Shown: in pieces, positions 5,994 through 34,279 of the stretch
Position numbering within the stretch: the first letter of the stretch is position 1
Layout of the letters: each line of letters opens with the position of its first letter
Virus record (IMG/VR): IMGVR_UViG_3300050821_001948
Span: 66,644 to 130,643 of that record
DNA length: 64,000 nt
Source: a virus
Direction: 5' to 3' (one strand)
Translations under genes and position numbers: made by a program
The notes under the pieces: model-generated
Seen by the model: the letters and a program-made list of their open reading frames with translations, nothing else
What the model was told of the DNA's origin: nothing
Databases searched by the model: none

Positions 5994-6150
5994 ACCCTTA
6001 TCCTCCCATATGCCGGTTTTAAGTGACCCCTGACACGCCGGTCAGGTTTTGATTTTCGAGGGATACGCTCAGTAGCCCTGTAACCTAATTCCTAAAATTT
6101 TCGCGATTGGAAAACATTTGATTCAACCGCTGACCTACCGATAAATAGGT

Positions 6151-6381
6151 ATGAACCTTTCTGTGACAAACACTGCTACTCGCTTGACGCTTCCTCAGGG
6201 TGCTCTCGTTATTCTTCAGAACCTGGGAAGCGGTGCGGTCTACGTTGATCAAGACGATAGCGTAAGTAGCACCACTTCTTTTAAGCTGGCGTCTGGTGAC
6301 AAGTACCAGTTCCCTAGAACGGCTGGCTCAATCTGGGTAATTAGCGATGGTGCGGCTGATCTTCGGATTCTTGTTGCTTAG
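6151..6381 (+). CDS. small beta-rich protein, possibly virion-associated
   Basis: ORF track; ACCGATA element 7 nt upstream. Confidence 0.6.
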   Translation: MNLSVTNTATRLTLPQGALVILQNLGSGAVYVDQDDSVSSTTSFKLASGDKYQFPRTAGSIWVISDGAADLRILVA

Positions 6382-6559
6382 GTAGTCGCTCTACATTACC
6401 GCAATTGTCCCACCTGGCGTTACACTCCCAATTTTCGCACTCAAATCCTGTTAAGTCTCGGTGCTCTGAATAGGCCATGGAAGTATAGGTAAGTTCAACC
6501 TCAATATCGTTTCCACAATATGGACATACGAGACGCCTAGGTTCTACCACATTATCCAT
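6341..6559 (-). CDS. zinc-ribbon protein
   Basis: CPYC...CENWEC motifs. Confidence 0.55.
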   Translation of the reverse strand: MDNVVEPRRLVCPYCGNDIEVELTYTSMAYSEHRDLTGFECENWECNARWDNCGNVERLPKQQESEDQPHHR

Positions 6560-6581
6560 TTCTCTCTCACAATTCCTCACT

Positions 6582-6606
6582 AAACCCGATTATCTCGGGT
6601 TTTTTG
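6582..6606. terminator. intrinsic terminator-like hairpin
   Basis: AAACCCGA-TTATC-TCGGGTTT followed by T run. Confidence 0.55.
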
Positions 6607-6619
6607 CGTTTTTCCAAGT

Positions 6620-6755
6620 AATAAACGAGTGGCCCGTAGCCGCTCGGGCGCCGAGTTCCGAGACAAGCTACGAGCCACTCGCAACTGGCGGATCAGGTCA
6701 CTTCGCACAGTGACCGATGCGCAGAGCGTGGCAGGCACCGCTCGTTGACCAGTTG
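6620..6755 (-). ncRNA. candidate structured ncRNA (~135 nt), unnamed
   Basis: minus-strand TTGACA-17-TAAGTT promoter (6790-6762); three-way junction plus 15-bp hairpin with G-U pair on this strand, followed by TTTATT. Confidence 0.55.
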
Positions 6756-6856
6756 AGCAGAAACTTAGCCACCCCGGAAACATTTGTCAAGCCCCTAGAT
6801 CTGGGTGGAGTGTCGTGCTAGAGTCTCTCCTAGCCGAAATTTTCTTGGAGGAAACC

Positions 6857-7084
6857 ATGTCTACCGACGTTATGTCAGATCTGAGCATCTCACCTACCTC
6901 TACGGATGTTCCCGATGACCCAGATGGCCTAGCCCATGTTGCGGATGAGGTAGAAATTACCCGGAGTGCAGTAGAGGGAACCGTAGTTACGGCTCTCTGC
7001 GGCTACAAGCTCCAACAGGTACGCGATGCGGTTGGTCTTCCCATCTGTGAAGAGTGTCGCAGGCTTAACCAACTACTTCTTTGA
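6857..7084 (+). CDS. DUF3039-like actinobacterial protein
   Basis: AHV...ITRSAVEGxxVTALCG...PICEEC signature; GGAGG RBS. Confidence 0.7.
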   Translation: MSTDVMSDLSISPTSTDVPDDPDGLAHVADEVEITRSAVEGTVVTALCGYKLQQVRDAVGLPICEECRRLNQLLL

Positions 7085-7132
7085 CGGGTAAGTTATACTG
7101 AAGGTTACATATACTACTGGTCGGAGAAGATT

Positions 7133-7504
7133 ATGGGCTGGAACGAGCTGAGCGTACCTGATGAGCCGGAAGGAACCGGCTGGGTTACAGCACCCCTTCT
7201 AACTACCTCAGAGATAGCCCAGGTAATTCTTTGTCGTTATACGGCTGAACGCCCATCGAGGGTAGACGTTGTGCACGGCATTGAATTAAACACCCCACCG
7301 GAGTGTTTAGCAAGGATGAAAGGCTTACACCCGGACGAAGACTGCCTGACGATTTTCGTCTCAGCTAGAAGTTTAGATGCTGGCATATCCGCAGAGGCTT
7401 TCACCTTAGAATTACGGACCAGCGACCCATCTAGTGAACCCCTTCATGCTGGACTCCTCTTCGAGGCTGACCTTGATGACGAGATTCCGCTCGCTGATGA
7501 GTAA
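7133..7504 (+). CDS. hypothetical protein
   Basis: ORF track; GGAG RBS. Confidence 0.6.
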   Translation: MGWNELSVPDEPEGTGWVTAPLLTTSEIAQVILCRYTAERPSRVDVVHGIELNTPPECLARMKGLHPDEDCLTIFVSARSLDAGISAEAFTLELRTSDPSSEPLHAGLLFEADLDDEIPLADE

Positions 7505-7709
7505 ATCCATCCCGTGCGTTTGTGGCGGTATAAATAGCGCGTGTACTCAATGTTCCGGTTCTGGGTTTGTCTTGAAAATTAACTGTCGTAGGTGTAATGG
7601 AACCGGAAACGACTCGGGTATTGCAAATGTCGGCGGAAAATGCGTAGATTGTCGCGGTTTAGGTTGGCGCGAGCTAGATAATCCTATTCTGACTGATGAG
7701 TTTGAGTGA
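7497..7709 (+). CDS. DnaJ-type zinc-finger protein
   Basis: CxxCxGxG repeats (CTQCSGSG, CRRCNGTG, CVDCRGLG). Confidence 0.7.
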   Translation: MSKSIPCVCGGINSACTQCSGSGFVLKINCRRCNGTGNDSGIANVGGKCVDCRGLGWRELDNPILTDEFE

Positions 7710-8287
7710 TCTATCCTTGGAGTAAGGCTGTCGTAATAAATTTGCCCTCAAGGAAGGATAGATTAGAACAATTCTCTCTTGGCGCCGAAAAGCAGGAGAT
7801 CAATTTCACTACATGGCCAGCTATGGCTCATCCATTAGGAGCAGTTGGCTGCTTGGCGTCACATCGGGAGGTTTTAAGGGCATTCAAGGATTCCGGTGAC
7901 GAATGTTGGGCCATATTCGAAGATGACTGCTTATTTGTGGACAACTTTCAAGAATTGTTCCATAACTTCTTCGATCTAGTTCCGGTGTGTTGGGATGCCC
8001 TGTGGCTTGGTGGTAGGCACTTGGATCATCCCATACGTATGCACGAGCACGCCCGAGTCATTACTAAGGTGAGCCTTAGTCATGCTTATGTGATATCACA
8101 CCGCGCAGTAGATGCGCTACTCGGTTTAACGGAAAGAGGGTTGCCGGGTACCTCTCACGTTGATAAGATGTGGAGTGACGCACTGGGTCCTCGTGGTTTA
8201 ACTTATGCTCCAGTTCCTTGGCTTTGTGGGCAATCTGATGGATGGTCTGATATAATTCAGTCTCATTTGTCAGAAAGATGGGGTTAA
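7706..8287 (+). CDS. glycosyltransferase family 25
   Basis: VINLxxRxDR, GCLASH, IFEDD, HAYVIS motifs. Confidence 0.8.
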   Translation: MIYPWSKAVVINLPSRKDRLEQFSLGAEKQEINFTTWPAMAHPLGAVGCLASHREVLRAFKDSGDECWAIFEDDCLFVDNFQELFHNFFDLVPVCWDALWLGGRHLDHPIRMHEHARVITKVSLSHAYVISHRAVDALLGLTERGLPGTSHVDKMWSDALGPRGLTYAPVPWLCGQSDGWSDIIQSHLSERWG

Positions 8288-8291
8288 TCGC

Positions 8292-8320
8292 TTGACGGGG
8301 TAGAAGCTGTCTGATAACGT
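8292..8320 (+). promoter_or_regulatory. sigma70-type promoter of the tRNA array
   Basis: TTGACG-17 nt-TAACGT. Confidence 0.6.
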
Positions 8321-8384
8321 ATGATTGCAACGTCCGATTCCGATAGTTGGACATTATAACCGAGATAAGGTACAGGAGGTAATC

Positions 8385-8486
8385 ATGATTGATACGCGCG
8401 GACTAGGGACAAACCCATCCGTTAATCAGTCATGGGCGAAGCGATTCCAGCCCACCTCGGCCTACAGTGGTGAGGAGCAGGACTAG
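8385..8486 (+). CDS. putative leader peptide (33 aa) of tRNA-array attenuator
   Basis: AGGAGGT RBS, MIDTRGLGTNPSVNQSWAKRFQPTSAYSGEEQD*, immediately before terminator. Confidence 0.6.
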   Translation: MIDTRGLGTNPSVNQSWAKRFQPTSAYSGEEQD

Positions 8487-8502
8487 ACTAAAATCTAAGC
8501 CT

Positions 8503-8533
8503 GCGCCCCTGTCCACTGGATGAGGGGCGTTTT
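8503..8533 (+). terminator. intrinsic terminator (attenuator) before first tRNA
   Basis: GCGCCCCT...AGGGGCGT + TTT. Confidence 0.65.
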
Positions 8534-8539
8534 ACATAT

Positions 8540-8611
8540 AGGGGATTAGTTCAGCGGTAGAACAGCAGTCTCCAAAACTGCGTGTCGGGAGTTCAAGTCT
8601 CTCATCCCCTG
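8540..8611 (+). tRNA. tRNA-Trp(CCA)
   Basis: cloverleaf; GCAGT-CTCCAAA-ACTGC. Confidence 0.92.
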
Positions 8612-8737
8612 CTAGACCGCCAGACCGGAGCTTGAGGCCGAGGTTCGATGTGTCTCTGGTAAGACTTGAAAACTGGACAGTGTGACCAAACGGTGTAGAA
8701 ACGAGCGTTACTTCTCGTTTTACTACTGCACCGTCAT

Positions 8738-8813
8738 CGGGATATGGAGGAGTATGGTCATCCTCGCCTGTTTTGGAAACAGGAGATCGCAGGTTCAAAT
8801 CCTGCTATCCCGA
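8738..8813 (+). tRNA. tRNA-Pro(TGG)
   Basis: cloverleaf; CCTGT-TTTGGAA-ACAGG. Confidence 0.92.
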
Positions 8814-8818
8814 CTGGA

Positions 8819-8891
8819 GTCGTTAAGGGTGTTGAGGGCAGCATACCGGCCGGTGAGGACGGAGGCTTCGGTTCGAATCCGGATTAACGAT
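8819..8891 (+). tRNA. atypical tRNA-His(GTG)-like
   Basis: acceptor TCGTTAA/TTAACGA, normal T arm, anticodon loop CG-GTG-AG (G33), mismatched anticodon stem, no U8. Confidence 0.55.
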
Positions 8892-8897
8892 TCGTTT

Positions 8898-8969
8898 GTG
8901 GTACAGGTGTTCTCGGTGACACGCCAGTCTTCCAAACTGGAGAACGGGGTTCGATCCCCCGGTGCCGCA
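8898..8969 (+). tRNA. tRNA-Gly(TCC)
   Basis: CCAGT-CTTCCAA-ACTGG. Confidence 0.9.
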
Positions 8970-9016
8970 CTAGACCCGGAGCGATCCCTAGTGAAAGTGG
9001 CTACATCGCCGGGTAT

Positions 9017-9083
9017 GCCAGACATTCTGGGACTAACGAGCCTTCGTACGGCTTGTAGTGGAGTTCGATTCTCCAGTTTGGCT
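9017..9083 (+). tRNA. tRNA-Thr(CGT), truncated D arm
   Basis: GAGCC-TTCGTAC-GGCTT; normal T arm; D arm reduced. Confidence 0.7.
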
Positions 9084-9091
9084 CGTATTTT

Positions 9092-9164
9092 GCCAGATTA
9101 GCTCAGTTGGAAGAGCGCCTCTCTTGTAAAGAGGATGTCGCGGGTTCGATTCCTGCATCTGGCT
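9092..9164 (+). tRNA. tRNA-Thr(TGT)
   Basis: CCTCT-CTTGTAA-AGAGG. Confidence 0.95.
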
Positions 9165-9194
9165 CTGGTGATGTTTTGTTAGCATCACTCATTT

Positions 9195-9267
9195 GCTGCC
9201 GTAGCTCATCTGGTAGAGCACTTCCCTGGTACGGAAGAGGTGCAAGGTTCGAGTCCTTGTGGTAGCT
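9195..9267 (+). tRNA. tRNA-Thr(GGT)
   Basis: CTTCC-CTGGTAC-GGAAG. Confidence 0.93.
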
Positions 9268-9342
9268 CTTGAAGCGGTATTCAATAGGGACATCGGGCCA
9301 TATGGAGCCCGATAGAACGCCGGTTTCCGGTGACCGCTCGTT

Positions 9343-9415
9343 GTGAAAGTAGCTCAGTTGGTAGAGCGCCACCTTGCCAAGGTGGAGGTCGCGGGTTCGA
9401 GCCCCGTCTTTCGCT
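9343..9415 (+). tRNA. tRNA-Gly(GCC)
   Basis: CCACC-TTGCCAA-GGTGG. Confidence 0.95.
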
Positions 9416-9554
9416 CAATGCACTAACTGGAACCCTGGCTGACGCTAACCACGCTCAGAGGGGTTCCGTGGTGGTGCAGGATGTATGGAAAGTGTTCTGC
9501 GGCAGGCGGTAGGTTGGTTACCTATGCGCACGTCGAAATTACTCCCGTACCTCT

Positions 9555-9626
9555 GGTTCTTTAGCTCAGTTGGTAGAGCAAGCGGTTGAAGCCCGCTGTG
9601 CGAAGGTTCAAGTCCTTCAGGAACCA
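9555..9626 (+). tRNA. tRNA-Phe(GAA)
   Basis: AGCGG-TTGAAGC-CCGCT. Confidence 0.92.
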
Positions 9627-9712
9627 CTGGAATCGATGGAAAAGAGGTAGTAGCCCAACGCGGTTGCGTCTTACGGTAACCATTCCGTGATTATGGGAGA
9701 TTGATTCCGTAT

Positions 9713-9785
9713 TGGAGAGTTGAGTAATTGGTAGCTCACCTGACTTTGAATCAGGCCGGTGTAGGTTCGAATCCTGCTTCTCCAG
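9713..9785 (+). tRNA. tRNA-Gln(TTG)
   Basis: CCTGA-CTTTGAA-TCAGG. Confidence 0.92.
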
Positions 9786-9851
9786 CTAGAGTGGGTATCA
9801 CGGCTGTCTTAGGACCGGATATTAAACGATCTACAGACGCCCGCTCGTTAT

Positions 9852-9924
9852 TGGCTACTAGGGGAACGGTAGACCCACTCGGCTCTGACCCGAGATCTTC
9901 CTAGTTCGAATCTAGGGTAGCCAG
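9852..9924 (+). tRNA. tRNA-Gln(CTG)
   Basis: CTCGG-CTCTGAC-CCGAG. Confidence 0.9.
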
Positions 9925-9948
9925 CTTATGCTACAATGTAGACAGCAT

Positions 9949-10021
9949 GTCCCACTAGCCCAACGGTAGAGGCAACGGGTTTAAGCCCCGTCTAGTGTCC
10001 GTTCGAATCGGACGTGGGATA
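9949..10021 (+). tRNA. tRNA-Leu(TAA)
   Basis: ACGGG-TTTAAGC-CCCGT; short variable loop. Confidence 0.9.
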
Positions 10022-10037
10022 CGACATAGTAAGACGA

Positions 10038-10111
10038 GCGCCTGGGACCGAACGGTTTGACGGTACTGAGCTTATATCTCAGCGGACAAGGTTCAATTCC
10101 TTGCGGGCGTA
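10038..10111 (+). tRNA. tRNA-Ile(TAT)
   Basis: CTGAG-CTTATAT-CTCAG; A73. Confidence 0.82.
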
Positions 10112-10119
10112 CGTAACAT

Positions 10120-10193
10120 GCAGGAGCATCCAAGCGGTTGAGGGAAACGTCTGATAAGCGTTAGCGGTGTAAGTTCGAATCTTACCTCCTGTA
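10120..10193 (+). tRNA. tRNA-Ile(GAT)
   Basis: AACGT-CTGATAA-GCGTT. Confidence 0.82.
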
Positions 10194-10213
10194 CGTCGAT
10201 ATGATAGAATCAT

Positions 10214-10286
10214 GGTCCGTTAGTGTAGCGGTTATCACGCCTGCCTCTCACGCAGGAAATCGCCGGTTCGAATCCGGCACGGACTA
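10214..10286 (+). tRNA. tRNA-Glu(CTC)
   Basis: CCTGC-CTCTCAC-GCAGG. Confidence 0.93.
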
Positions 10287-10333
10287 CGACAGAACAGTAC
10301 TGTTTTTGGTATAGTTCTGACACATAATAACGT

Positions 10334-10409
10334 CGCGGAGTGGACTGGAGTTCGGCCCCAGCACGGCCTCATAAGCCGTACGACGCAGGTTCGAATCCTG
10401 CCTCCGCCA
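10334..10409 (+). tRNA. tRNA-Met(CAT), initiator-like
   Basis: C1 unpaired, CGCGGAG acceptor; ACGGC-CTCATAA-GCCGT. Confidence 0.85.
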
Positions 10410-10463
10410 CTGGTTGATGAATAGCATGCTTCGAGGTGACGAGCCCCCGACATTAACCGTTAT

Positions 10464-10539
10464 TGGCATGATGCTCTTGTCGGCTCAGGGCGCCTGGCTG
10501 TTAACCAGGACTTCGTAGGTTCGACTCCTACCATGCCAG
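10464..10539 (+). tRNA. tRNA-Asn(GTT)
   Basis: CCTGG-CTGTTAA-CCAGG. Confidence 0.85.
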
Positions 10540-10578
10540 CAGGGTTACTATACGCAAGGTCGCTTAGTAACCTGATAT

Positions 10579-10648
10579 GGGCTTTACGCTAAGGTAGCGA
10601 TCCTCTTTTGCAAGGAGGCTGTAAGGGGTTCGATTCCCCTAGGGTCCA
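10579..10648 (+). tRNA. tRNA-Ala(TGC)
   Basis: CCTCT-TTTGCAA-GGAGG; G3-U70 present. Confidence 0.8.
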
Positions 10649-10649
10649 C

Positions 10650-11048
10650 GTGGGAAATACCGAACGCAAAAGATTCATCCGAGATAAACGCAGACGAATT
10701 CTAGTCTCTGCGCTGGGTGGACTTTGTTCTAGTTGTGGTGTAGCTGAGAATCTTCAGTTTGATCACATCATCCCTGCTACAAAGGTCTTCGAAATGAGCG
10801 GTTATCATCTAGATAAGCCTTGGGTCATCCTAATAGATGAGTTGTCTAAGTGTCAGTTATTGTGTAACGATTGCCATCTCGATAAATCTAAACTAGAGGG
10901 TTCGCTCGGAACGGTAGATCACGGTGGTGGTATTAGTGGAAAGAAAAACTGCCCCTGTGTGCTATGTAAAACTCGCAAGGCTGAATATATGAAGAATTAT
11001 CACTTGGGACGTTGGAGCAGCGGAGTGCTCGTCACCCTGTCAAGGTGA
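10650..11048 (+). CDS. HNH endonuclease (free-standing, in tRNA array)
   Basis: CSSCG...LQFDHI...KCQLLCNDCH; C-terminus overlaps tRNA-Asp. Confidence 0.85.
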   Translation: MGNTERKRFIRDKRRRILVSALGGLCSSCGVAENLQFDHIIPATKVFEMSGYHLDKPWVILIDELSKCQLLCNDCHLDKSKLEGSLGTVDHGGGISGKKNCPCVLCKTRKAEYMKNYHLGRWSSGVLVTLSR

Positions 11049-11078
11049 AGGTCACGGGTTCAAATCCCGTACGTCTCG
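11006..11078 (+). tRNA. tRNA-Asp(GTC)
   Basis: TCACC-CTGTCAA-GGTGA. Confidence 0.93.
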
Positions 11079-11079
11079 C

Positions 11080-11152
11080 GGTGTCTATAGCTCAGTGGTT
11101 AGAGCGCCCGACTGTGACTCGGGATACGATGGTTCGACCCCATCTAGACACA
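11080..11152 (+). tRNA. tRNA-His(GTG)
   Basis: CCCGA-CTGTGAC-TCGGG; G-1, A73. Confidence 0.88.
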
Positions 11153-11154
11153 CT

Positions 11155-11227
11155 GTGAGAGGTAGCCCAATAGAGAGGCAACCTGATAAGGGATCAAAGT
11201 GTCGGTGTCAAATCCGACCCTCTCACC
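11155..11227 (+). ncRNA. tRNA-like RNA with degenerate anticodon arm
   Basis: G-TGAGAGG/CCTCTCA-C acceptor, D arm, T stem with 8-nt loop TGTCAAAT, no 5-bp/7-nt anticodon arm. Confidence 0.6.
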
Positions 11228-11230
11228 TAT

Positions 11231-11307
11231 GCCATGACTGCTGGGACAGACGCGGGTCTGTAAAACCTGCTCCTACGGATAGCGAGGTTCGATTCCTCGG
11301 CGTGGCA
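11231..11307 (+). tRNA. tRNA-Tyr(GTA), reduced D arm
   Basis: GCGGGT-CTGTAAA-ACCTGC, long variable arm, T arm. Confidence 0.75.
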
Positions 11308-11308
11308 C

Positions 11309-11382
11309 TAGTGTGTAGCTCAGTAATAGAGCATCGGCACCACAGCCGAAGGTCCCCGGTCTGAAAACTCCGGGCGCGCTTC
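11309..11382 (+). ncRNA. tRNA-like RNA with 6-nt anticodon loop and 10-nt T loop
   Basis: TAGCTCAG..AGAGC D arm, TCGGC-ACCACA-GCCGA, AGGTC variable loop, CCCGG-TCTGAAAACT-CCGGG. Confidence 0.6.
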
Positions 11383-11384
11383 TT

Positions 11385-11465
11385 GGAAGGTAGCGCGAAT
11401 GGTCGCAATCGGTCTTGAAAACCGTGCCAGGGTTAAACCTGAGGGTTCGATTCCTTTACTTTCCG
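11385..11465 (+). tRNA. tRNA-Ser(TGA)
   Basis: CGGT-CTTGAAA-ACCG, long variable arm, G73. Confidence 0.85.
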
Positions 11466-11560
11466 CAAGAAGACAGTTAGTTGGAGGCCCACAGGTCAAT
11501 GAAGACCCTGTTTTCTAGTCAGCCAGAAATACTTGTGCACAGTAATCTGGTTGGCGTCAT

Positions 11561-11631
11561 GCATCCGTAGCTGAGGGGATTAGCCGCTGACTCTTAATCA
11601 GCAGACGTTGGTTCGATTCCAACCGGGTGTA
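11561..11631 (+). tRNA. tRNA-Lys(CTT)
   Basis: GCTGA-CTCTTAA-TCAGC. Confidence 0.9.
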
Positions 11632-11655
11632 CTTGTGTTAGACTGCTAGAAACAA

Positions 11656-11727
11656 GCCTCGCTAGCTCAGAGGAAGAGCAGCCGACTTTTAATCGGCGGG
11701 TCGGGATATCGTAATTCTCGCGGGGTA
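11656..11727 (+). tRNA. tRNA-Lys(TTT), atypical T loop
   Basis: GCCGA-CTTTTAA-TCGGC; T loop ATCGTAA. Confidence 0.8.
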
Positions 11728-11728
11728 C

Positions 11729-12073
11729 ATGGTGAAAGAAAAGCTATTCTCGGTAACGGTTAACGACTGCGAAGTGCAGACCTTCCGTTCTGGTGGTAAT
11801 GGCGGTCAAAACCAGAACGTTCGCGATACTGGCGTTCGGATTATTCATCATCCATCGGGCGCTCGCGGTGAGTCACGCGAGGAGCGTTCTCAGCTACAAA
11901 ATAAGAGAACCGCCTTCCGAAGAATGGCTGAGTCTGCTAAGTTTAAGATCTGGATTACTCGGGTCGTCGGAAATCGACTTTCACCCGAACAGCAGGTAGA
12001 GAAAGATATGCAGGAAGCGAACTTGAAAGTTGAGGTTCGTGATGGTAAGGTTTGGAAAGTTGTGCCTCACTAG
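11729..12073 (+). CDS. RF-1 domain (GGQ) peptidyl-tRNA hydrolase / ribosome rescue factor
   Basis: TFRSGGNGGQNQN...TGVRIIH.PSG...ERSQLQNK. Confidence 0.9.
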   Translation: MVKEKLFSVTVNDCEVQTFRSGGNGGQNQNVRDTGVRIIHHPSGARGESREERSQLQNKRTAFRRMAESAKFKIWITRVVGNRLSPEQQVEKDMQEANLKVEVRDGKVWKVVPH

Positions 12074-12137
12074 CTCAGTGGACTAGAGCACTTGGTTTCT
12101 ACCCAAGGTGTCGCAGGTTCGAATCCTGCGTGGGGCT
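12064..12137 (+). tRNA. tRNA-Arg(TCT)
   Basis: CTTGG-TTTCTAC-CCAAG; overlaps stop of GGQ gene. Confidence 0.92.
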
Positions 12138-12264
12138 CGCGTTGGCCAAGCACGGCCATAGGTTTGAGTGTCATAGTCTGTCAGATACGCTCGGAGTCAT
12201 ATGCCCGAAGACGGCTGGCTAAGCTCTTACCGAATTGGGAACTCGAAAGCCCTTTGCGCAGCAT

Positions 12265-12348
12265 GGAAGATGCCCGCACGGCGACGGAGCCTGAGTGCTA
12301 ATCAGGTACGAGGTAAAACTCCGGTAGGTTCGACTCCTACATCTTCCG
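12265..12348 (+). tRNA. tRNA-Ser(GCT)
   Basis: CCTGA-GTGCTAA-TCAGG, long variable arm. Confidence 0.85.
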
Positions 12349-12455
12349 CTGCATAGTTCAGGTAGCCAGCGTGTATTGATGTGATGACGGATCGATTGTG
12401 ATAGAATCGTCCCGATCCATATTGAGCCCTCTCTTATGTTACTATCACCTACATA

Positions 12456-12520
12456 GACTGGGTAACGCGAAAGAACACCGACTTCATACGTCGGAGACCT
12501 GTGAGTGGCGCACTCAGTCA
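12456..12520 (+). ncRNA. minimal tRNA-like RNA with CAT anticodon (degenerate D and T arms)
   Basis: GACTGGG/CTCAGTC acceptor + A73, CCGAC-TTCATAC-GTCGG, 4-bp T-stem remnant. Confidence 0.6.
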
Positions 12521-12525
12521 AATTT

Positions 12526-12596
12526 GCCGCTGTTGCCGAATGGTTAGGCGCTGGATTGCAACCCCAGTTACGCAGGTCCGATTCCTGTCGGCGGCT
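12526..12596 (+). tRNA. tRNA-Cys(GCA)
   Basis: CTGG-ATTGCAACC-CCAG; U73. Confidence 0.88.
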
Positions 12597-12639
12597 CGAT
12601 ATTCACTGTTATGCTATTATTTACCGATAGTGTAAATAT

Positions 12640-12713
12640 GGCCTACTACTCCAATAGGTAGAGGGGACGGATTCAAAACCCGTACAGTCTCAGTTCGAAT
12701 CTGAGGTGGGCCA
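12640..12713 (+). tRNA. tRNA-Leu(CAA)
   Basis: ACGG-ATTCAAAAC-CCGT. Confidence 0.88.
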
Positions 12714-12726
12714 CGTAGTAAGATAT

Positions 12727-12800
12727 GCCGGTGTATCCCAATTGGTAGAGGAGCCTGACTTAGAATCAGGATGTTGGAGGTTCGAGTCCTCTCATCGGTA
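12727..12800 (+). tRNA. tRNA-Leu(TAG)
   Basis: CCTGA-CTTAGAA-TCAGG. Confidence 0.92.
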
Positions 12801-12903
12801 CAAGGGTTGTCAACGGTAGCTGCCTGTCGGCTACTGGCAATGCGGCTTAGACCACCGCGCCGCGCATGAAGCTTGGTCGGCGGATTGCTTGATGGCCCAG
12901 TTT

Positions 12904-12976
12904 GCCGGATTACGTCATGGGGTAGACTGGCTCCCTTACAAGGAGTTTGCGGAAGGTTCGAGTCCTTCATCCGGTA
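12904..12976 (+). tRNA. tRNA-Val(TAC)
   Basis: GCTCC-CTTACAA-GGAGT. Confidence 0.88.
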
Positions 12977-13109
12977 CGCAGTTGCCTCGGCCTCCAGGGG
13001 CGAAGTTGGGTGTGGTTAGCGCATGAGGGATATTCTAGAAACACCCTGAAGTCAGCGTCATCCGGCGATCTGTGGGGATTGGTGTCCATAGAGACTGTAC
13101 CCACTTAAG

Positions 13110-13138
13110 TTGACAATAGGCGAACGCCGTGTTAACTT
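13110..13138 (+). promoter_or_regulatory. sigma70-type promoter of rpf
   Basis: TTGACA-17 nt-TAACTT. Confidence 0.6.
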
Positions 13139-13237
13139 ACTATAAGTAAATAGCAAGGAGCCCCACCAGGGGTTCAGCCAGGACGCCCCAAAATTCGATT
13201 TGAATGAGGGTGTCGCCGCAACTGCCTCTGGAGACAC

Positions 13238-13687
13238 ATGCCCTATGCTATCAAATTCCTTATTGTCCTAATCATCGCTGTAGTTTCGCCAGGTAAACCG
13301 CCGAATATTATCGCAGCTTCTGATACTCAGCCGGTAGTATTCAGTTATCAAGACTCCGTAAGTGCAGCATTCGCGTTCCATGATTTAATGGTTCAAGATG
13401 CACCTAAACCCAAACCTATTAAACCAACTCCGGTAGCATACAATACCGTATGGGATCATCTAGCTCAGTGTGAGTCCTCTGGTAACTGGGCTGACACCGC
13501 TGGTATGTTTGAGGGCGGTCTCCAGTTCCTCCACTCTACATGGATCGAGTATGGCGGCGCGACCTTCGCTCAGCACGCCTACGAGGCCACCAGGGAGCAG
13601 CAGATCCTAGTGGCTACAAGAGCCTTAGCTGGGCGTCCAGACTGGTCAGCGTGGCCTGTGTGTAGCATCAAGCTTGGTCTACGATAA
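13238..13687 (+). CDS. rpf: resuscitation-promoting factor (Rpf) transglycosylase
   Basis: hydrophobic N-terminus; WDHLAQCESSGNW...GGLQF..STW...ATREQQI...AWPVCS. Confidence 0.92.
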   Translation: MPYAIKFLIVLIIAVVSPGKPPNIIAASDTQPVVFSYQDSVSAAFAFHDLMVQDAPKPKPIKPTPVAYNTVWDHLAQCESSGNWADTAGMFEGGLQFLHSTWIEYGGATFAQHAYEATREQQILVATRALAGRPDWSAWPVCSIKLGLR

Positions 13688-13742
13688 ATCTTTCCCTTCA
13701 TTGTGAAGGGAAAACGGCGTGAAGCCGTGAAAGAAAGGTGGC

Positions 13743-13937
13743 GTGATGCCAAAAGAAAAGTTCTACGACAGCACTCGAATTGATGGAGATGGATTACCTC
13801 CAGATATTATCGTTGCTTGGGGAAATTCCCAACCAGAGGTCACCATCAATGGCATAGTGTATGATAGGTCTGGGGTAAATCGTTTGATCAGCACTCTTCG
13901 TAAGGCGCGAAATCAAACTTATGGACCCGATGAATAA
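13743..13937 (+). CDS. hypothetical protein
   Basis: ORF track; GAAAGG RBS. Confidence 0.65.
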   Translation: MMPKEKFYDSTRIDGDGLPPDIIVAWGNSQPEVTINGIVYDRSGVNRLISTLRKARNQTYGPDE

Positions 13938-14119
13938 AATGTGATATGATGAAGCTGCCCTGTGCGTGGGGCGCGCGACCTGTTGCGGGAAGCGGCACGT
14001 ACCGGAAGGTCGGTAGGCTGGGGTAGCCGATCACCGTTAAACACTACCCAGACGCAACCTCTTCATAGGCATTCGTGCCCGTCTCCCCGGCGCGTTGAAG
14101 AGTATGTAGCCGGGGTTTA

Positions 14120-14195
14120 GCTTCTATAGCTCAGTGGAAAGAGCGTCTGGCTACGAACCAGAAGGTCGGGAGTTCGAATCTCTCTAGGGGCACCA
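14120..14195 (+). tRNA. tRNA-Arg(ACG), CCA encoded
   Basis: TCTGG-CTACGAA-CCAGA. Confidence 0.95.
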
Positions 14196-14254
14196 TCGTT
14201 CAGAGGCCAAACGGTCAGGCACCGCTCTCATAAGGCGGGCAACCCGCCGATATT

Positions 14255-14722
14255 ATGAAAGTGAAGAATTGTTCAAATTGCAAGCAAACCAAACCGCACA
14301 GTGAGTTTGGCCGTAACGTAGCTACGAAAGATGGTTTACAGTATCACTGTAAGCAGTGTCGAAACGCTTACCTGAAAACTTGGTACTCTGAGAACAAGGA
14401 CTTACAAAAAAGTCGAGTCCAGAAAAATACCAAAAAGAAGGTTGATGACCGCAGAAATTTGATACGGGAAATCAAAGAGTCGACACCATGCGCAGACTGT
14501 GGTATCCTCTACCCTCCGTACGTCATGGATTTCGACCACCTCCCCGGAAGTGAGAAGATTACATCCATCTCATCCTTATCGCAAGGATGGCGTGGGAGCG
14601 TCGAGATACTAAAAGCGGAGATCCTAAAGTGTGAGCTTGTATGTGCCAACTGTCACAGAATTAGAACTCACAAAAGGCGCGTCAACGCTGGGAAGCCGAA
14701 GGGTGAGGCACCTCTCTCATAA
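14255..14722 (+). CDS. HNH endonuclease with N-terminal zinc finger (alternative start GTG 14261)
   Basis: CSNC...HCKQC; PCADCG...MDFDHL...KCELVCANCHRIRT; stop lies in anticodon loop of nested tRNA. Confidence 0.88.
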   Translation: MKVKNCSNCKQTKPHSEFGRNVATKDGLQYHCKQCRNAYLKTWYSENKDLQKSRVQKNTKKKVDDRRNLIREIKESTPCADCGILYPPYVMDFDHLPGSEKITSISSLSQGWRGSVEILKAEILKCELVCANCHRIRTHKRRVNAGKPKGEAPLS

Positions 14723-14760
14723 AGAGGCCGTCGTGGGCTCGACTCCCACTCCAGCGACCA
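14686..14760 (+). tRNA. tRNA-Met(CAT), nested replacement copy, CCA encoded
   Basis: CGCTGGG/TCCAGCG; CCTCT-CTCATAA-AGAGG; T loop CTCGACT. Confidence 0.85.
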
Positions 14761-14803
14761 TCTAACCGGGTATAGTTGGTTCGATTCCAACCTGGACGAC
14801 CAT

Positions 14804-14875
14804 CGGCTCGTAGCTCAGAGGAAGAGCACGCGGTTCCTATCCGTGGTGTCGGGGGTTCGACTCCCTCCGGGCCGA
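14804..14875 (+). tRNA. tRNA-Arg(CCT)
   Basis: CGCGG-TTCCTAT-CCGTG. Confidence 0.9.
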
Positions 14876-14881
14876 CAATGG

Positions 14882-15205
14882 TCACACTGTCCTGGGTGCC
14901 CGTTCCCGTTCTTGACGACTCATCTCTAGGATGAAGTCAGTAATCTCGTCTTCGGTGATAGCTGGGCCTTGGGGATTGGATTCTACCAGCTCTAGTGGTA
15001 CATGGCTCAGTACGTGCTCAACCATAGGGAACAGAAGCGCCACTATTGCAGAGTTAGCATCCCTCTGGTAAGCTTGGGAACACTTAGAGCAAACGAATTC
15101 GTAATATGGTTTACCGTAGGGGTCGTCAAATAGATAGAGGGTCACACGCTCAGGCGTTAATTCAACCCTTCCATCTATCGGGCAAACTACAGCAATACCA
15201 TTCAT
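14882..15205 (-). CDS. hypothetical zinc-binding protein
   Basis: CPxDG...CSKC, C-terminal GPAITEDE; ATG 15205 avoids overlap with tmRNA. Confidence 0.65.
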   Translation of the reverse strand: MNGIAVVCPIDGRVELTPERVTLYLFDDPYGKPYYEFVCSKCSQAYQRDANSAIVALLFPMVEHVLSHVPLELVESNPQGPAITEDEITDFILEMSRQERERAPRTV

Positions 15206-15268
15206 AGTGTTATTATCGCACGTGACGCAAACCGATATGAATTCTACAACTGAATAGGGTTTACACAT

Positions 15269-15627
15269 GGGGGTGCCGGGTTTCGACGGCATCTGCTGAT
15301 GTGAGAGAAGCGAGCAAGACCAAGGTAACACGGAAGTCTTTCAAAACTCTTGTTGCATAAAATAAATGAGGCATTCGTGCCCGCTCGTTCTTACGCTCTC
15401 GTAGCCTAGGAACCGTCAGCCCGAGGATTCCTCGACTCGGTAACTGGCGTCAGCTAGAGGAACGCTCTCCGATTAGGTGTTCGAGTAGTCGGAGCTAAGA
15501 TACACGAACTAAGCTCACCGGATGAGTCCCGCAATGCCGGAAGCTGACATTTAAGACCGGGACTACGCTCGTAGAAGAAGCACAAACGTAATGTCGGACG
15601 GGAGTTCAACTCTCCCCACCTCCACCA
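15269..15627 (+). ncRNA. ssrA: tmRNA; tag (A)EAFVPARSYALVA at 15368-15409
   Basis: GGGGGTG..TTTCGAC 5' end, GACGGGAGTTCAACTCTCCCCACCTCCACCA 3' end, G3-U70, AATAAAT resume signal. Confidence 0.93.
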
Positions 15628-15683
15628 ACGCTCGATGGAACCCTATACGGGAGCTAACTATTGCGTTTTCATCGAGCGTGTTT

Positions 15684-15755
15684 GGCCGATTGGGGTACTG
15701 GCTAGCCCTCCTGACCTTCACTCAGGGAGAAACGGATCGAAACCGTTATCGGCTA
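15684..15755 (+). tRNA. tRNA-Glu(TTC), C33 and atypical T loop
   Basis: CCTGA-CCTTCAC-TCAGG; AACGG-ATCGAAA-CCGTT. Confidence 0.75.
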
Positions 15756-15768
15756 CAAAGTGAGTCTT

Positions 15769-15840
15769 GTTTTCGTAGCTCAATGGAAGAGCGTAGCCCT
15801 CCGAAGGCTAAGGTTGCTGGTTCAAGTCCAGCCGGGAACA
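15769..15840 (+). tRNA. tRNA-Arg(CCG)
   Basis: TAGCC-CTCCGAA-GGCTA. Confidence 0.92.
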
Positions 15841-15884
15841 CTTTTATCGGTTGAATGCCGATATACTCTTCAGGAGGTAATACA

Positions 15885-16061
15885 ATGGCTGAAGATAGAG
15901 TACTCGGAACCGGCGCACAGCATTTGTCCGCCGTTCAGGTTGGTAGATCACTCTTTGCTCACGAGTCCGCATTTGAAGTAGTGGCAGAACCAGCAACGGA
16001 CGTTATTGAGGTAGTAGTTCCAGATCCCGTAATTTCGGAAGCTACTTCCACCGAAGAGTAA
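15885..16061 (+). CDS. small acidic hypothetical protein
   Basis: AGGAGG RBS; GCCGATA upstream at 15857. Confidence 0.6.
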   Translation: MAEDRVLGTGAQHLSAVQVGRSLFAHESAFEVVAEPATDVIEVVVPDPVISEATSTEE

Positions 16062-16101
16062 TAGGCTTTCATCTTATTCAAGAATAGCCGATAAAGTCTT
16101 C

Positions 16102-16293
16102 GTGACACTTATTACCGAGAAGGCTACCCATAACCTCGATTTGCCACATGCATTTTTTGGCGTCGGGGATATTGAGCTGTCTTCAATTCGCAAGTGCGTT
16201 TGTGGTCGGAACGGTAACGATCCTCTACATAGTTTCTCACAGACTGAATGGGCATCGTCTAACGAGCCCCTAATGACCGAAAAGGGGTCGTAA
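16102..16293 (+). CDS. small hypothetical protein
   Basis: GTG 8 nt after GCCGATA (16087-16093). Confidence 0.55.
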   Translation: MTLITEKATHNLDLPHAFFGVGDIELSSIRKCVCGRNGNDPLHSFSQTEWASSNEPLMTEKGS

Positions 16294-16296
16294 GAC

Positions 16297-17217
16297 ATGG
16301 CTGCACCGACAATTAGCTCAGTAACCCCCGCAGCGGGGCCAATTACAGGAACAACGAGCGTTGCTATCGTTGGAACCAACCTAGATACTGTGACCGCCGT
16401 AAACTTCGGTCTTGTTGCAGCCACTAGCTTTATTCTAACTGACCCGACCCATATGTCGGCTATTGCGCCTGCTCACGCGGCTGGTGTTGTTGATATAACC
16501 GTAATTAACCCGACTGCTACTTCTGCGACTTCAAGCGCCGACCACTTCACGTTCGAGCCGATCCCGGTTGTTTCAAGCGTAGCTCCGGGTGGTGGACCGA
16601 CCGCTGGCGCGACTTCTGTAGTCATCCACGGTTCTGGCTTCACGGGTGTTACTGGTGCCGCTGGTGTGAAGTTTGGTGCTACAAACGCGACCTCTTACGT
16701 AGTAAATAGCGACACTCAGATCACCGCAGTAGCACCGGCACACTCTGCTGCAACTGTCGATATCACGGTTACGAGTCCAGGTGGTGTTTCTACTACCTCT
16801 GCGGCTGATGACTTCGTTTATGCGGGTCTACCGACTGTAACTTCAGTAACCCCTCTTCCTGGTGATGAAGATGTCGAAATTGTTGGTACTAACTTTCTAG
16901 GGGTTACGGATGTTGAGTTTGGCGGACATGACGCCACTTCCTTTACTGTTACTGACTCAACTCACATCGTTGCTACGTACGCCCCATTGAGCGCACCAGC
17001 TACCGTTGATGTGACCGTAACGGCATTCGGTGGAGTTTCCGCTACAAGCGGTGCTGACCTGGTATTTGATGGCACCTACGTGCAGCCAGATGGTACTGAG
17101 GATGCAACTTACTTCATGGATGTGGAGATCTCACCAGCTACACTAGCTGATGGTTCCCTGTTCGCGCGTCTGAACCCTGATGTCTACCCTCAGGTTGGGG
17201 TAATCGCGAGTTCCTAG
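16297..17217 (+). CDS. IPT/TIG Ig-like repeat protein (probable virion surface protein)
   Basis: three PxxxSVxP..G..V.I.G.NF...V.FG...AT.F...SDT.I.A.AP repeats. Confidence 0.85.
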   Translation: MAAPTISSVTPAAGPITGTTSVAIVGTNLDTVTAVNFGLVAATSFILTDPTHMSAIAPAHAAGVVDITVINPTATSATSSADHFTFEPIPVVSSVAPGGGPTAGATSVVIHGSGFTGVTGAAGVKFGATNATSYVVNSDTQITAVAPAHSAATVDITVTSPGGVSTTSAADDFVYAGLPTVTSVTPLPGDEDVEIVGTNFLGVTDVEFGGHDATSFTVTDSTHIVATYAPLSAPATVDVTVTAFGGVSATSGADLVFDGTYVQPDGTEDATYFMDVEISPATLADGSLFARLNPDVYPQVGVIASS

Positions 17218-31884: not shown

Positions 31885-31925
31885 GAAAACAGCGTCTCGT
31901 CGTAATTTGGCGGGGCGCTGTTTTC
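31885..31925. terminator. intrinsic terminator
   Basis: GAAAACAGCG...CGCTGTTTTC inverted repeat. Confidence 0.75.
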
Positions 31926-34239: not shown

Positions 34240-34279
34240 GAAAAAGCCCCTCCACCTTCACGGGTCGGGGGGCTTTTTC
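34240..34279. terminator. bidirectional terminator
   Basis: GAAAAAGCCCC...GGGGCTTTTTC between convergent genes. Confidence 0.85.

Follow-up and report, generated by a model that had tools for sequence, protein, structure and literature searches.

Promoter-like sites, a short reading frame and a terminator-like hairpin at the head of a phage tRNA array

Locus and features

The viral record IMGVR_UViG_3300050821_001948 comprises 130,643 bases and is rated 84% complete. The window is the whole stretch of DNA analysed here, 64,000 nucleotides in length (66644-130643 of the record), and all positions are those of the window. The leader under study lies between a family-25 glycosyltransferase (GT25) gene and a tRNA array, and the genes near it are all on the plus strand. 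Two small ORFs are found among the upstream genes, beside the GT25 gene and the gene for a DUF3039 protein. The features are as follows.

6815-7084, plus strand: DUF3039 protein, upstream of the leader
7434-7709, plus strand: 91-aa zinc-finger ORF, upstream neighbour
7706-8287, plus strand: GT25 gene, directly upstream, followed by a 97-nt gap to the leader ORF
8227-8256, plus strand: TGGGCA-18-TATAAT with an upstream TG (extended -10), inside the 3' end of the GT25 gene, from the sigma-70 scan
8292-8297 and 8315-8320, plus strand: promoter-like site TTGACG-17-TAACGT, between the GT25 gene and the leader ORF
8374-8379, plus strand: Shine-Dalgarno (SD) sequence AGGAGG (T at 8380), 5 nt ahead of the ATG
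8385-8486, plus strand: 33-codon ORF MIDTRGLGTNPSVNQSWAKRFQPTSAYSGEEQD, ATG at 8385, TAG at 8484-8486
8466-8481, plus strand: candidate antiterminator 5' strand (AGUGG, AGG, GCAGG) in the last ORF codons, from nascent-RNA folding
8477-8504, plus strand: small hairpin spanning the stop codon, GCAGG/CCUGC plus UAGA/UCUA, -10.8 kcal/mol
8504-8529, plus strand: GC-rich hairpin C8504-G8529, -16.7 kcal/mol, 11 pairs, bulged G8522, loop ACU
8530-8533, plus strand: U4 tract, followed by ACAUAU and then by tRNA-Trp at 8540
8540-8612, plus strand: tRNA-Trp(cca), first gene of the array (ARAGORN, Rfam)
9167-9194, plus strand: hairpin (-9.8 kcal/mol) with TTT, 3 nt before tRNA-Thr(ggt) at 9195, no SD-led ORF
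14085-14119, plus strand: hairpin CCCCGGC...GCCGGGG (-17.3 kcal/mol) with UUU, 4 nt before tRNA-Arg(acg) at 14120, no SD-led ORF

The array contains 33 tRNAs and a tmRNA according to ARAGORN, plus two more tRNA matches in Rfam, and extends to 15841. HNH-like ORFs, an RF-1-domain protein, an Rpf-type transglycosylase and small ORFs are located between its tRNAs, and several array ORFs overlap the next tRNA (for example 10608-11048 with tRNA-Asp at 11006, and 11729-12073 with tRNA-Arg at 12064). The RF-1 protein is 61-64% identical to mycobacteriophage counterparts, the RNA ligase is 35-38% identical to ligases of Streptomyces and Arthrobacter phages, and the phage also encodes an amidase-type lysin and an Rpf domain. 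The lysin type, the Rpf domain and the similarities of the RF-1 protein and the RNA ligase point to an actinobacterial host. Mycobacteriophage Catera was considered as an annotated analogue and rejected, as its RF-1 gene lies outside any tRNA array.

The short ORF and its peptide

An earlier note on this DNA had described an AGGAGGT ribosome-binding site and a 33-codon leader ORF with a single Trp codon; all three are present, the Trp codon being TGG 8433-8435, codon 17 of the ORF. The source record has a gene call for the ORF (P0001), and its frame is open from TTG 8325 (53 aa). Leaderless mRNAs are frequent in actinobacteria, and genome-wide only 27 of the 66 AGGAGG sites have a start codon 3-10 nt downstream. 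The codon score of the ORF (0.273 per codon) equals the median of in-frame pieces from the phage's 50 long ORFs and is reached by 0.3% of out-of-frame pieces. By this score the ORF would come 11th in a set of 867 small ORFs (25-45 codons); an SD-like 5-mer is present in just 9 of the set. Its gene-like codon usage and its SD sequence suggest that the ORF is probably translated. Runs of one codon, tandem regulatory codons and a recognisable stalling peptide were not found in it, and to our knowledge the peptide contains no known stalling motif.

The peptide of the 33-codon ORF, searched with HMMER against 1.84 billion representative proteins, matched itself and three proteins. Two of the three (P0002 and P0003) consist of repeated HTH_23/HTH_Tnp_1 units and were matched with E = 2e-8 and 7e-8, values that are summed over 5-7 repeats. 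Similarity to the turn and recognition helix of these repeats (LGINPSTAQTWVKK) spans residues 7-31 of the peptide, with a Smith-Waterman score of 68 against the HTH repeat (shuffles 26 ± 4). Ahead of the ATG, the open frame can be aligned with the HTH helix that comes before, leaving a 9-residue gap in place of helix 2. Pfam (E ≤ 10) gave no match for either the 33-aa or the 53-aa ORF, HTH_23 and HTH_Tnp_1 profiles included, and PHROGs (E ≤ 1) gave none for the leader ORF. As a weak lead, the ORF is possibly a descendant or relic of a decayed small HTH gene that retained its terminator, a descent that would also account for the gene-like codon usage.

Promoter-like sites

The promoter-like TTGACG-17-TAACGT claimed in the earlier note can be read directly from the sequence at 8292-8320, and TANNNT is the actinobacterial -10. 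The window contains the pattern TTGAC-N17-19-TANNNT 10 times, where 5.24 ± 2.36 would be expected, and 10 occurrences are reached by 4 of 100 shuffles; by itself the motif is weak evidence for a promoter. The site at 8227-8256 has 10 of 12 matches, is the top sigma-70 match in 6000-17000 and scores better than the site at 8292-8320. The sigma-70 scan as a whole returned 11 sites, against 9.1 ± 3.2 expected, which is not significant alone. A similar site, TTGACA-17-TAACTT, is present at 13110-13138 ahead of the Rpf-like gene. Between 8320 and 10286 the sigma-70 scan found no sigma-70-like site, and the spacer between the hairpin and tRNA-Trp is too short for a promoter; the first ~15 tRNAs therefore need read-through of the hairpin.

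The hairpin ahead of tRNA-Trp

The earlier note placed a GC-rich terminator 6 nt before tRNA-Trp; a terminator-like hairpin at 8504-8529 and the UUUU that follows it are present there. The element has the characters of a Rho-independent terminator, i.e. a GC stem-loop that lies beyond a stop codon and runs directly into a U tract. With 4 U, and 6 T within the 10 bases after the stem, this tract is short. The hairpin was 18th of 440 hairpin+TTT sites in a permissive whole-genome scan and was omitted by a simple terminator scan, probably owing to its bulge. The folding of 8325-8545 is stronger than that of shuffles (z = -2.99), also when the terminator is left out (z = -2.43). The small hairpin at 8477-8504 competes with the terminator for C8504 only.

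The hairpin lies 17 nt after the stop codon of the leader ORF. Terminators after the phage's long genes lie 13-30 nt after the stop, a range given by the sites after the four longest ORFs, and have the same build, with the tails TTTTCATTTA, TTTTTCGTTA and TTTTTTTGTA. The leader hairpin resembles in particular those at 31890-31920 (after a 445-aa gene) and 34246-34273 (after a 327-aa gene), with which it has in common a GC stem of 26-31 nt, a U4-5 tail, a stop codon 13-30 nt upstream and the behaviour of the 5' arm described below. Unlike these, it follows an ORF of 33 codons and is itself followed, 6 nt on, by a co-directional promoterless tRNA array. Within the array, hairpin+T-run elements that have no SD-led ORF adjoin tRNAs at 9167-9189 and 14085-14115. 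A promoter-like site at 13922-13950 precedes the second of these; homology between the leaders 8288-8545 and 13915-14125 was looked for and not found.

A terminator with no promoter downstream is the geometry expected if an efficient terminator were overridden by a processive antitermination factor of phage or host that times the expression of the array. This we regard as highly improbable. Geometry is what speaks for it, together with a very weak match (E = 0.01) of the 91-aa zinc-finger ORF at 7434-7709 to the PHROG 'anti-termination protein Q-like'. The same ORF matches DnaJ_CXXCXGXG below the Pfam cut-off (19.6 vs 32.7 bits), a likeness that explains the PHROG match, and neither a nut-, put- or qut-like element nor an Rfam match was identified.

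Folding of the leader RNA

The earlier note held that the last codons of the ORF pair with the 5' arm of the terminator, forming an antiterminator which a ribosome at the stop codon would block. In an extended form of this scheme 8466-8481 would pair with 8500-8517 when the last codons are uncovered, with read-through into the array. When the SD is free, 8369-8380 would pair with 8505-8514 and hold the 5' arm of the terminator likewise. A ribosome at the stop codon would free the arm and cause termination, so that the array would be made preferentially when translation is slow or blocked. This attenuator as a whole is considered unlikely, on the evidence given in this and the following sections.

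The pairing proposed in the note stands in part. GCAGG 8477-8481 is predicted to pair with CCUGC 8500-8504 (P about 1), but only C8504 of the latter belongs to the terminator stem. The proposed AGG:CCU extension has P ≤ 0.015 at equilibrium, yet it forms in the nascent RNA. There it is part of a longer helix, in which AGUGG 8466-8470 pairs with CCACU 8513-8517, AGG 8473-8475 with CCU 8508-8510 and GCAGG 8477-8481 with CCUGC 8500-8504.

Equilibrium folding was run with stretches masked as ribosome-covered, the footprint of a ribosome being about ±15 nt. The terminator pairs kept P ≥ 0.90 under every ribosome mask, which would count against a ribosome-gated antiterminator. The leader of the E. 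coli trp operon (trpL, locus L248), used as a control, retains its terminator at equilibrium in all three states (free, Trp-stalled and with the ribosome at the stop codon), showing the test to be powerless, and equilibrium folding was dropped as a refutation of the antiterminator.

A nascent-RNA test was used in which the RNA is cut just ahead of the terminator 3' arm and the pairing of the 5' arm at that point is read. It was validated on trpL, whose switch it reproduces: the 5' arm is paired 0.14 with no ribosome, 0.66 when Trp-stalled and 0.14 with the ribosome at the stop codon. In the phage leader the 5' arm is paired 0.96 with no ribosome, its partner being the SD region 8369-8380, and 0.90 when a ribosome sits on the Trp codon. 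Covering the SD while leaving the last codons free gives 0.54-0.62, and covering the SD together with the stop codon gives 0.13. In these models the structural logic of the earlier note is thus compatible with the leader sequence, and this dependence on the state of the ribosome is a point in favour of a ribosome-gated attenuator.

The strength of the antiterminator pairing is within chance. The local helix gain of -7.7 kcal/mol is reached by 13.6% of dinucleotide-type and 13.2% of mononucleotide shuffles, and by 11.8% of 1326 real 64-nt windows when these are set in front of the arm. The duplex of the SD with the 5' arm (-13.3 kcal/mol) was also considered as a special antiterminator and rejected, since 36% of 4350 genome windows and 52% of 1000 shuffles give a duplex as strong.

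The nascent-RNA test was also applied to 15 hairpin+T sites of the genome, including the two tRNA-adjacent ones. Among the 6 terminators that follow ORFs of at least 93 aa, a stop-codon ribosome releases the arm in 4 (0.44 to 0.11, 0.72 to 0.43, 0.78 to 0.57 and 0.65 to 0.54) and fails to do so in 2 (0.42 to 0.68 and 0.22 to 0.24); in the same 64-nt context the leader changes from 0.54 to 0.26. In this folding test a stop-codon ribosome releases the arm of the leader, but most of these ordinary gene-end terminators do likewise, and the nascent-RNA behaviour does not separate a switch from an ordinary terminator. The folding switch is not evidence for an attenuator, because gene-end terminators act alike and the pairing is within chance, and also because the ORF has no tandem regulatory codons and ORF-less hairpins adjoin other tRNAs of the array.

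Comparison with other tRNA arrays

Heads of tRNA arrays were surveyed in this window and in 28 other loci with at least 5 tRNAs. Hairpins that reach -18 kcal/mol within 15 nt upstream were found at 25 of 224 sub-array head tRNAs and at 6 of 224 random positions, a comparison that contains duplicates and in which the random positions are mostly coding. The median hairpin is -9.3 kcal/mol at head tRNAs vs -8.8 kcal/mol at random positions (Mann-Whitney p = 0.22). Non-duplicate hairpins of -15 kcal/mol or better number 32; 12 lie directly after an ORF of at least 60 aa, 14 after an ORF of 20-59 codons and 6 after none. Their distances to the tRNA fall into bins of 14, 10 and 8, a mild skew towards 0-4 nt. 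Two loci (L006 and L007) have a 59-aa gene with a canonical terminator about 75 nt before an array led by tRNA-Trp.

Many of the strong head-tRNA hairpins have no U tract (at 6444 and 9474 in L005, 666 and 17055 in L009, 16869 and 18495 in L019, and 5428 in L037). This agrees with a role of the leader hairpin in the processing or insulation of an mRNA-tRNA co-transcript, where it would prevent mispairing of the leader with tRNA-Trp and would cap the leader mRNA against 3' exonucleases after RNase P cleavage. Such a role would also suit the shortness of the U tract in the present leader, and the enrichment of promoter-like sites upstream of head tRNAs, which places the hairpin within a leader. 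Of 188 non-duplicate head tRNAs, 17 have the pattern TTGAC-N17-19-TANNNT within 300 nt upstream, vs 4.5% of 5000 random windows (binomial p = 0.005); the random windows are mostly coding, so that an enrichment in intergenic leaders is partly expected. Both strong hairpins of the window, however, carry U3-4 right after the stem, as the gene-end terminators do, and the skew towards adjacency is weak. We consider a processing or insulating role to be somewhat unlikely.

Seven of the 17 promoter-bearing heads are array-first tRNAs (23 non-duplicate array-first tRNAs were counted, under a slightly different duplicate filter), and in these the hairpin sits in a leader of 80-230 nt. In 4 of the 7, namely in this window and in L005, L034 and L036, the promoter-like site is followed by an ORF of 25-45 codons before the hairpin or tRNA is reached. 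The closest look-alike is L036, where TTGACA-18-TACGCT is followed, 7 nt after the -10, by the start of a 25-codon ORF that ends 18 nt before a hairpin of -20.8 kcal/mol, which in turn is followed by tRNA-Trp. These parallels favour gating by the ribosome to some degree, although L036 is a single, non-homologous case without statistics. None of the array-head parallels is homologous to the leader and small ORFs are common by chance, so that the parallels are suggestive only. In a looser version of the ribosome-gated proposal, the order promoter, short ORF, strong hairpin and first tRNA would be a recurrent head module of actinophage arrays, found in non-homologous form in L005, L034 and L036.

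Search for relatives and known families

The leader DNA, searched against 50,697 phage records by megablast and blastn, gave matches to tRNA genes only. The GT25 protein had best tblastn matches of at most 28% identity, and no related loci were found from it in IMG/VR or metagenomes; a search based on the DUF3039 protein likewise found none. The LysA protein led to 16 loci and a head-decoration-like protein to 80, none of which has the neighbouring genes or a tRNA array. The RF-1-like protein led to 69 and 80 loci, at most 72% identical, with no blastn or tblastn match to the leader. Exact-pattern scans for the hairpin and for part of tRNA-Trp gave 0 matches, and the 53-aa frame matched only itself among 5.8 billion proteins. 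Apart from the HTH-repeat matches of the peptide, no relatives of the leader, the hairpin, the peptide or the four upstream proteins were thus found in phage records, IMG/VR, metagenome contigs or protein libraries. Contigs of two DNA runs (at least 80% likeness) matched tRNA genes only and nothing in 7700-8503, a result that is given no weight.

Rfam 15 (E ≤ 1) has no match in 8290-8539, with no T-box, riboswitch or leader family among its hits there. In 6500-16500 it returned tRNAs and the tmRNA only, besides below-threshold matches that overlap tRNA genes. The lack of an Rfam family and of any conservation found in these searches counts against an attenuator.

Comparison with known systems

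Like E. coli trpL and other amino-acid operon attenuators, the phage leader has an intrinsic terminator that is preceded by a short ORF with an SD sequence. As in trpL, an upstream segment can hold the 5' arm of the terminator, and in the same folding test the position of the ribosome alters the pairing. Unlike trpL, the phage leader has no tandem regulatory codons, its one Trp codon lies 50 nt from the pairing segment, and a third structure of the 1:2 type (pause or anti-antiterminator) is missing. The pairing is not above chance and no conservation was found, and the genes downstream are tRNAs, not biosynthetic enzymes.

Co-transcripts of mRNA and tRNA that are matured by RNase P are known from the tRNA cluster of phage T4 and the tufB operon of E. 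coli. As in these, coding sequence and tRNAs share a strand here, and the spacers between them could not hold promoters.

The bmrCD operon of Bacillus subtilis is reported to have a ribosome-mediated attenuator of the kind that responds to antibiotics or translation stress (PMC4191407). The logic of this kind is the one proposed in the earlier note, in that slowed translation of a short leader ORF lets transcription pass the terminator. From this kind the phage leader differs in having no known stalling peptide or inducer and in having a tRNA array as its target. Among the titles and opening lines of abstracts searched, none described an attenuator with a leader peptide in front of phage tRNA genes.

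Interpretation

The likeliest reading, given an even chance, is a small gene cassette with a constitutive, partly leaky terminator, which transcription passes to enter the array. One or two SigA-type promoter-like sites (8227-8256 and 8292-8320) would drive a leader transcript, and the SD-led 33-codon ORF borne by this transcript would be translated. RNA polymerase would then meet the constitutively folding hairpin at 8504-8529 with its U4 and would terminate in part. The hairpin would act as a fixed, partly leaky gate and not as a sensor, and the polymerases that read through it would supply the first 15 or so tRNAs. A cut by RNase P at 8539/8540 may free the tRNAs from a leader mRNA that keeps a protective 3' hairpin.

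The elements of the cassette, its gene-like codon usage and the strength of its hairpin are established directly. All elements of a small gene are present, including an SD sequence that is rare among small ORFs; the build of the hairpin and its distance from the stop codon match the phage's long-gene terminators; and the ribosome-dependent release of the arm is common to ordinary terminators, with alternative pairings within chance. The ORF-less hairpins beside other tRNAs of the array, the hairpins at other array heads (12 of 32 after ORFs of at least 60 aa), the layout of L006 and L007 and the HTH similarity, which fits a decayed small HTH gene, point in the same direction. On the other side, a terminator 6 nt before a promoterless tRNA is an odd site for a purely constitutive stop and invites regulation. 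Ribosome gating would agree with the nascent-RNA test, and codon usage and SD equally favour a translated leader peptide. Furthermore, the median hairpin strength at head tRNAs does not differ from that at random positions and the distance skew is mild, and the HTH similarity rests on three library proteins, with Pfam and PHROGs without a match.

For a ribosome-gated attenuator it can be added that its ORF is probably translated and that the hairpin is the sole entry to the first 15 or so tRNAs. The findings do not tell a ribosome-sensing switch apart from an ordinary small gene whose terminator leaks. The further proposal of the earlier note, an induction of the array as a counter-defence under translation stress or attack by anticodon nucleases, finds no support.

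Significance

Two recent articles reportedly discuss phage tRNA arrays as a counter to tRNA-cleaving host defences (eLife 2023, PMC10264068; Nat Commun 2024, PMC11555353). The elements of the present leader are, as they stand, ordinary. If true, a ribosome-sensing gate would be the first feedback link from translation status to phage tRNA supply, and the supply of tRNA would rise as translation falters. The narrower statement is that a terminator-like hairpin stands before the first 15 or so tRNAs of the array and that these have no promoter of their own, which makes the site at 8504, together with those at 9167 and 14085, a defined target for studies of termination.

Genes and tRNA-like elements in and near the array

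Two library proteins contain HTH_23/HTH_Tnp_1 repeats whose turn and recognition helix are similar to the peptide encoded by the 33-codon ORF ahead of the array (8385-8483; frame from 8325). Helix 2 is absent from this similarity, and the ORF may be what is left of a small HTH gene. The spacer between tRNA-Trp and tRNA-Pro is 125 nt long (8613-8737). By eye, it contains GGTTCGAT, which is T-loop-like, and near 8700-8723 a small hairpin with UUUU; from its sequence, the spacer may be a decayed tRNA. The other features of the window considered here are as follows.

Features in and near the tRNA array (window coordinates)
7434-7709: 91-aa ORF, 3 or 4 CxxCxGxG-like motifs
10038-10111: tRNA match, Rfam 49.9 bits, not reported by ARAGORN
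10608-11048: HNH-like ORF inside the array, its end within tRNA-Asp (11006)
11656-11727: tRNA match, Rfam 42.8 bits, not reported by ARAGORN
11729-12073: RF-1-domain (GGQ) protein, 114 aa, within the array
13238-13687: Rpf-type transglycosylase-like protein, coded within the array
14255-14722: HNH-like ORF inside the array, its end within tRNA-Met (14686)
15269-15627: phage-borne tmRNA close to the array end, tag peptide EAFVPARSYALVA

The RF-1-domain protein is 61-64% identical to mycobacteriophage 'RF-1 peptide chain release factor', and the 3' end of its ORF overlaps tRNA-Arg(tct) (12064) by 10 nt. Copies of the second HNH-like ORF (14255-14722) occur at 33-41% identity in other phage arrays. 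Upstream of the Rpf-type transglycosylase-like gene lies TTGACA-17-TAACTT (13110-13138), and downstream of it a two-way hairpin (13690-13714). The 91-aa ORF, which overlaps a 123-aa ORF (7133-7504), matches the DnaJ central domain at 19.6 bits, below the cut-off.

Array heads in other loci

The order tRNA-Trp then tRNA-Pro at the start of the array is common to the window and two of the other loci with tRNA arrays, L006 and L007, in which a conserved 59-aa ORF lies upstream.

Array heads with the 59-aa ORF
L006, 3819-4200: tRNA-Trp then tRNA-Pro
L007, 4897-5280: tRNA-Trp then tRNA-Pro

A canonical terminator (GC hairpin and T5) is located about 75 nt upstream of these two arrays, and the RF-1 proteins of the same contigs are similar to those in mycobacterial prophage records.

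A non-homologous look-alike of the window's array head was observed at 3257-3520 of L036, a 130-kb viral contig. It has a promoter-like site (TTGACA-18-TACGCT), and, 7 nt past the -10, the ATG that starts a 25-codon ORF with a Trp codon in it; 18 nt separate this ORF from a hairpin (-20.8 kcal/mol) with a U-rich tail, ahead of tRNA-Trp as the first tRNA.

In four further loci, L005, L009, L019 and L037, long perfect hairpins of -18 to -33 kcal/mol adjoin head tRNAs (first of an array or sub-array). These hairpins end 0-4 nt upstream of the tRNA 5' ends and have no U tract, which suggests that they serve in processing or 3'-capping where mRNA and tRNA meet.
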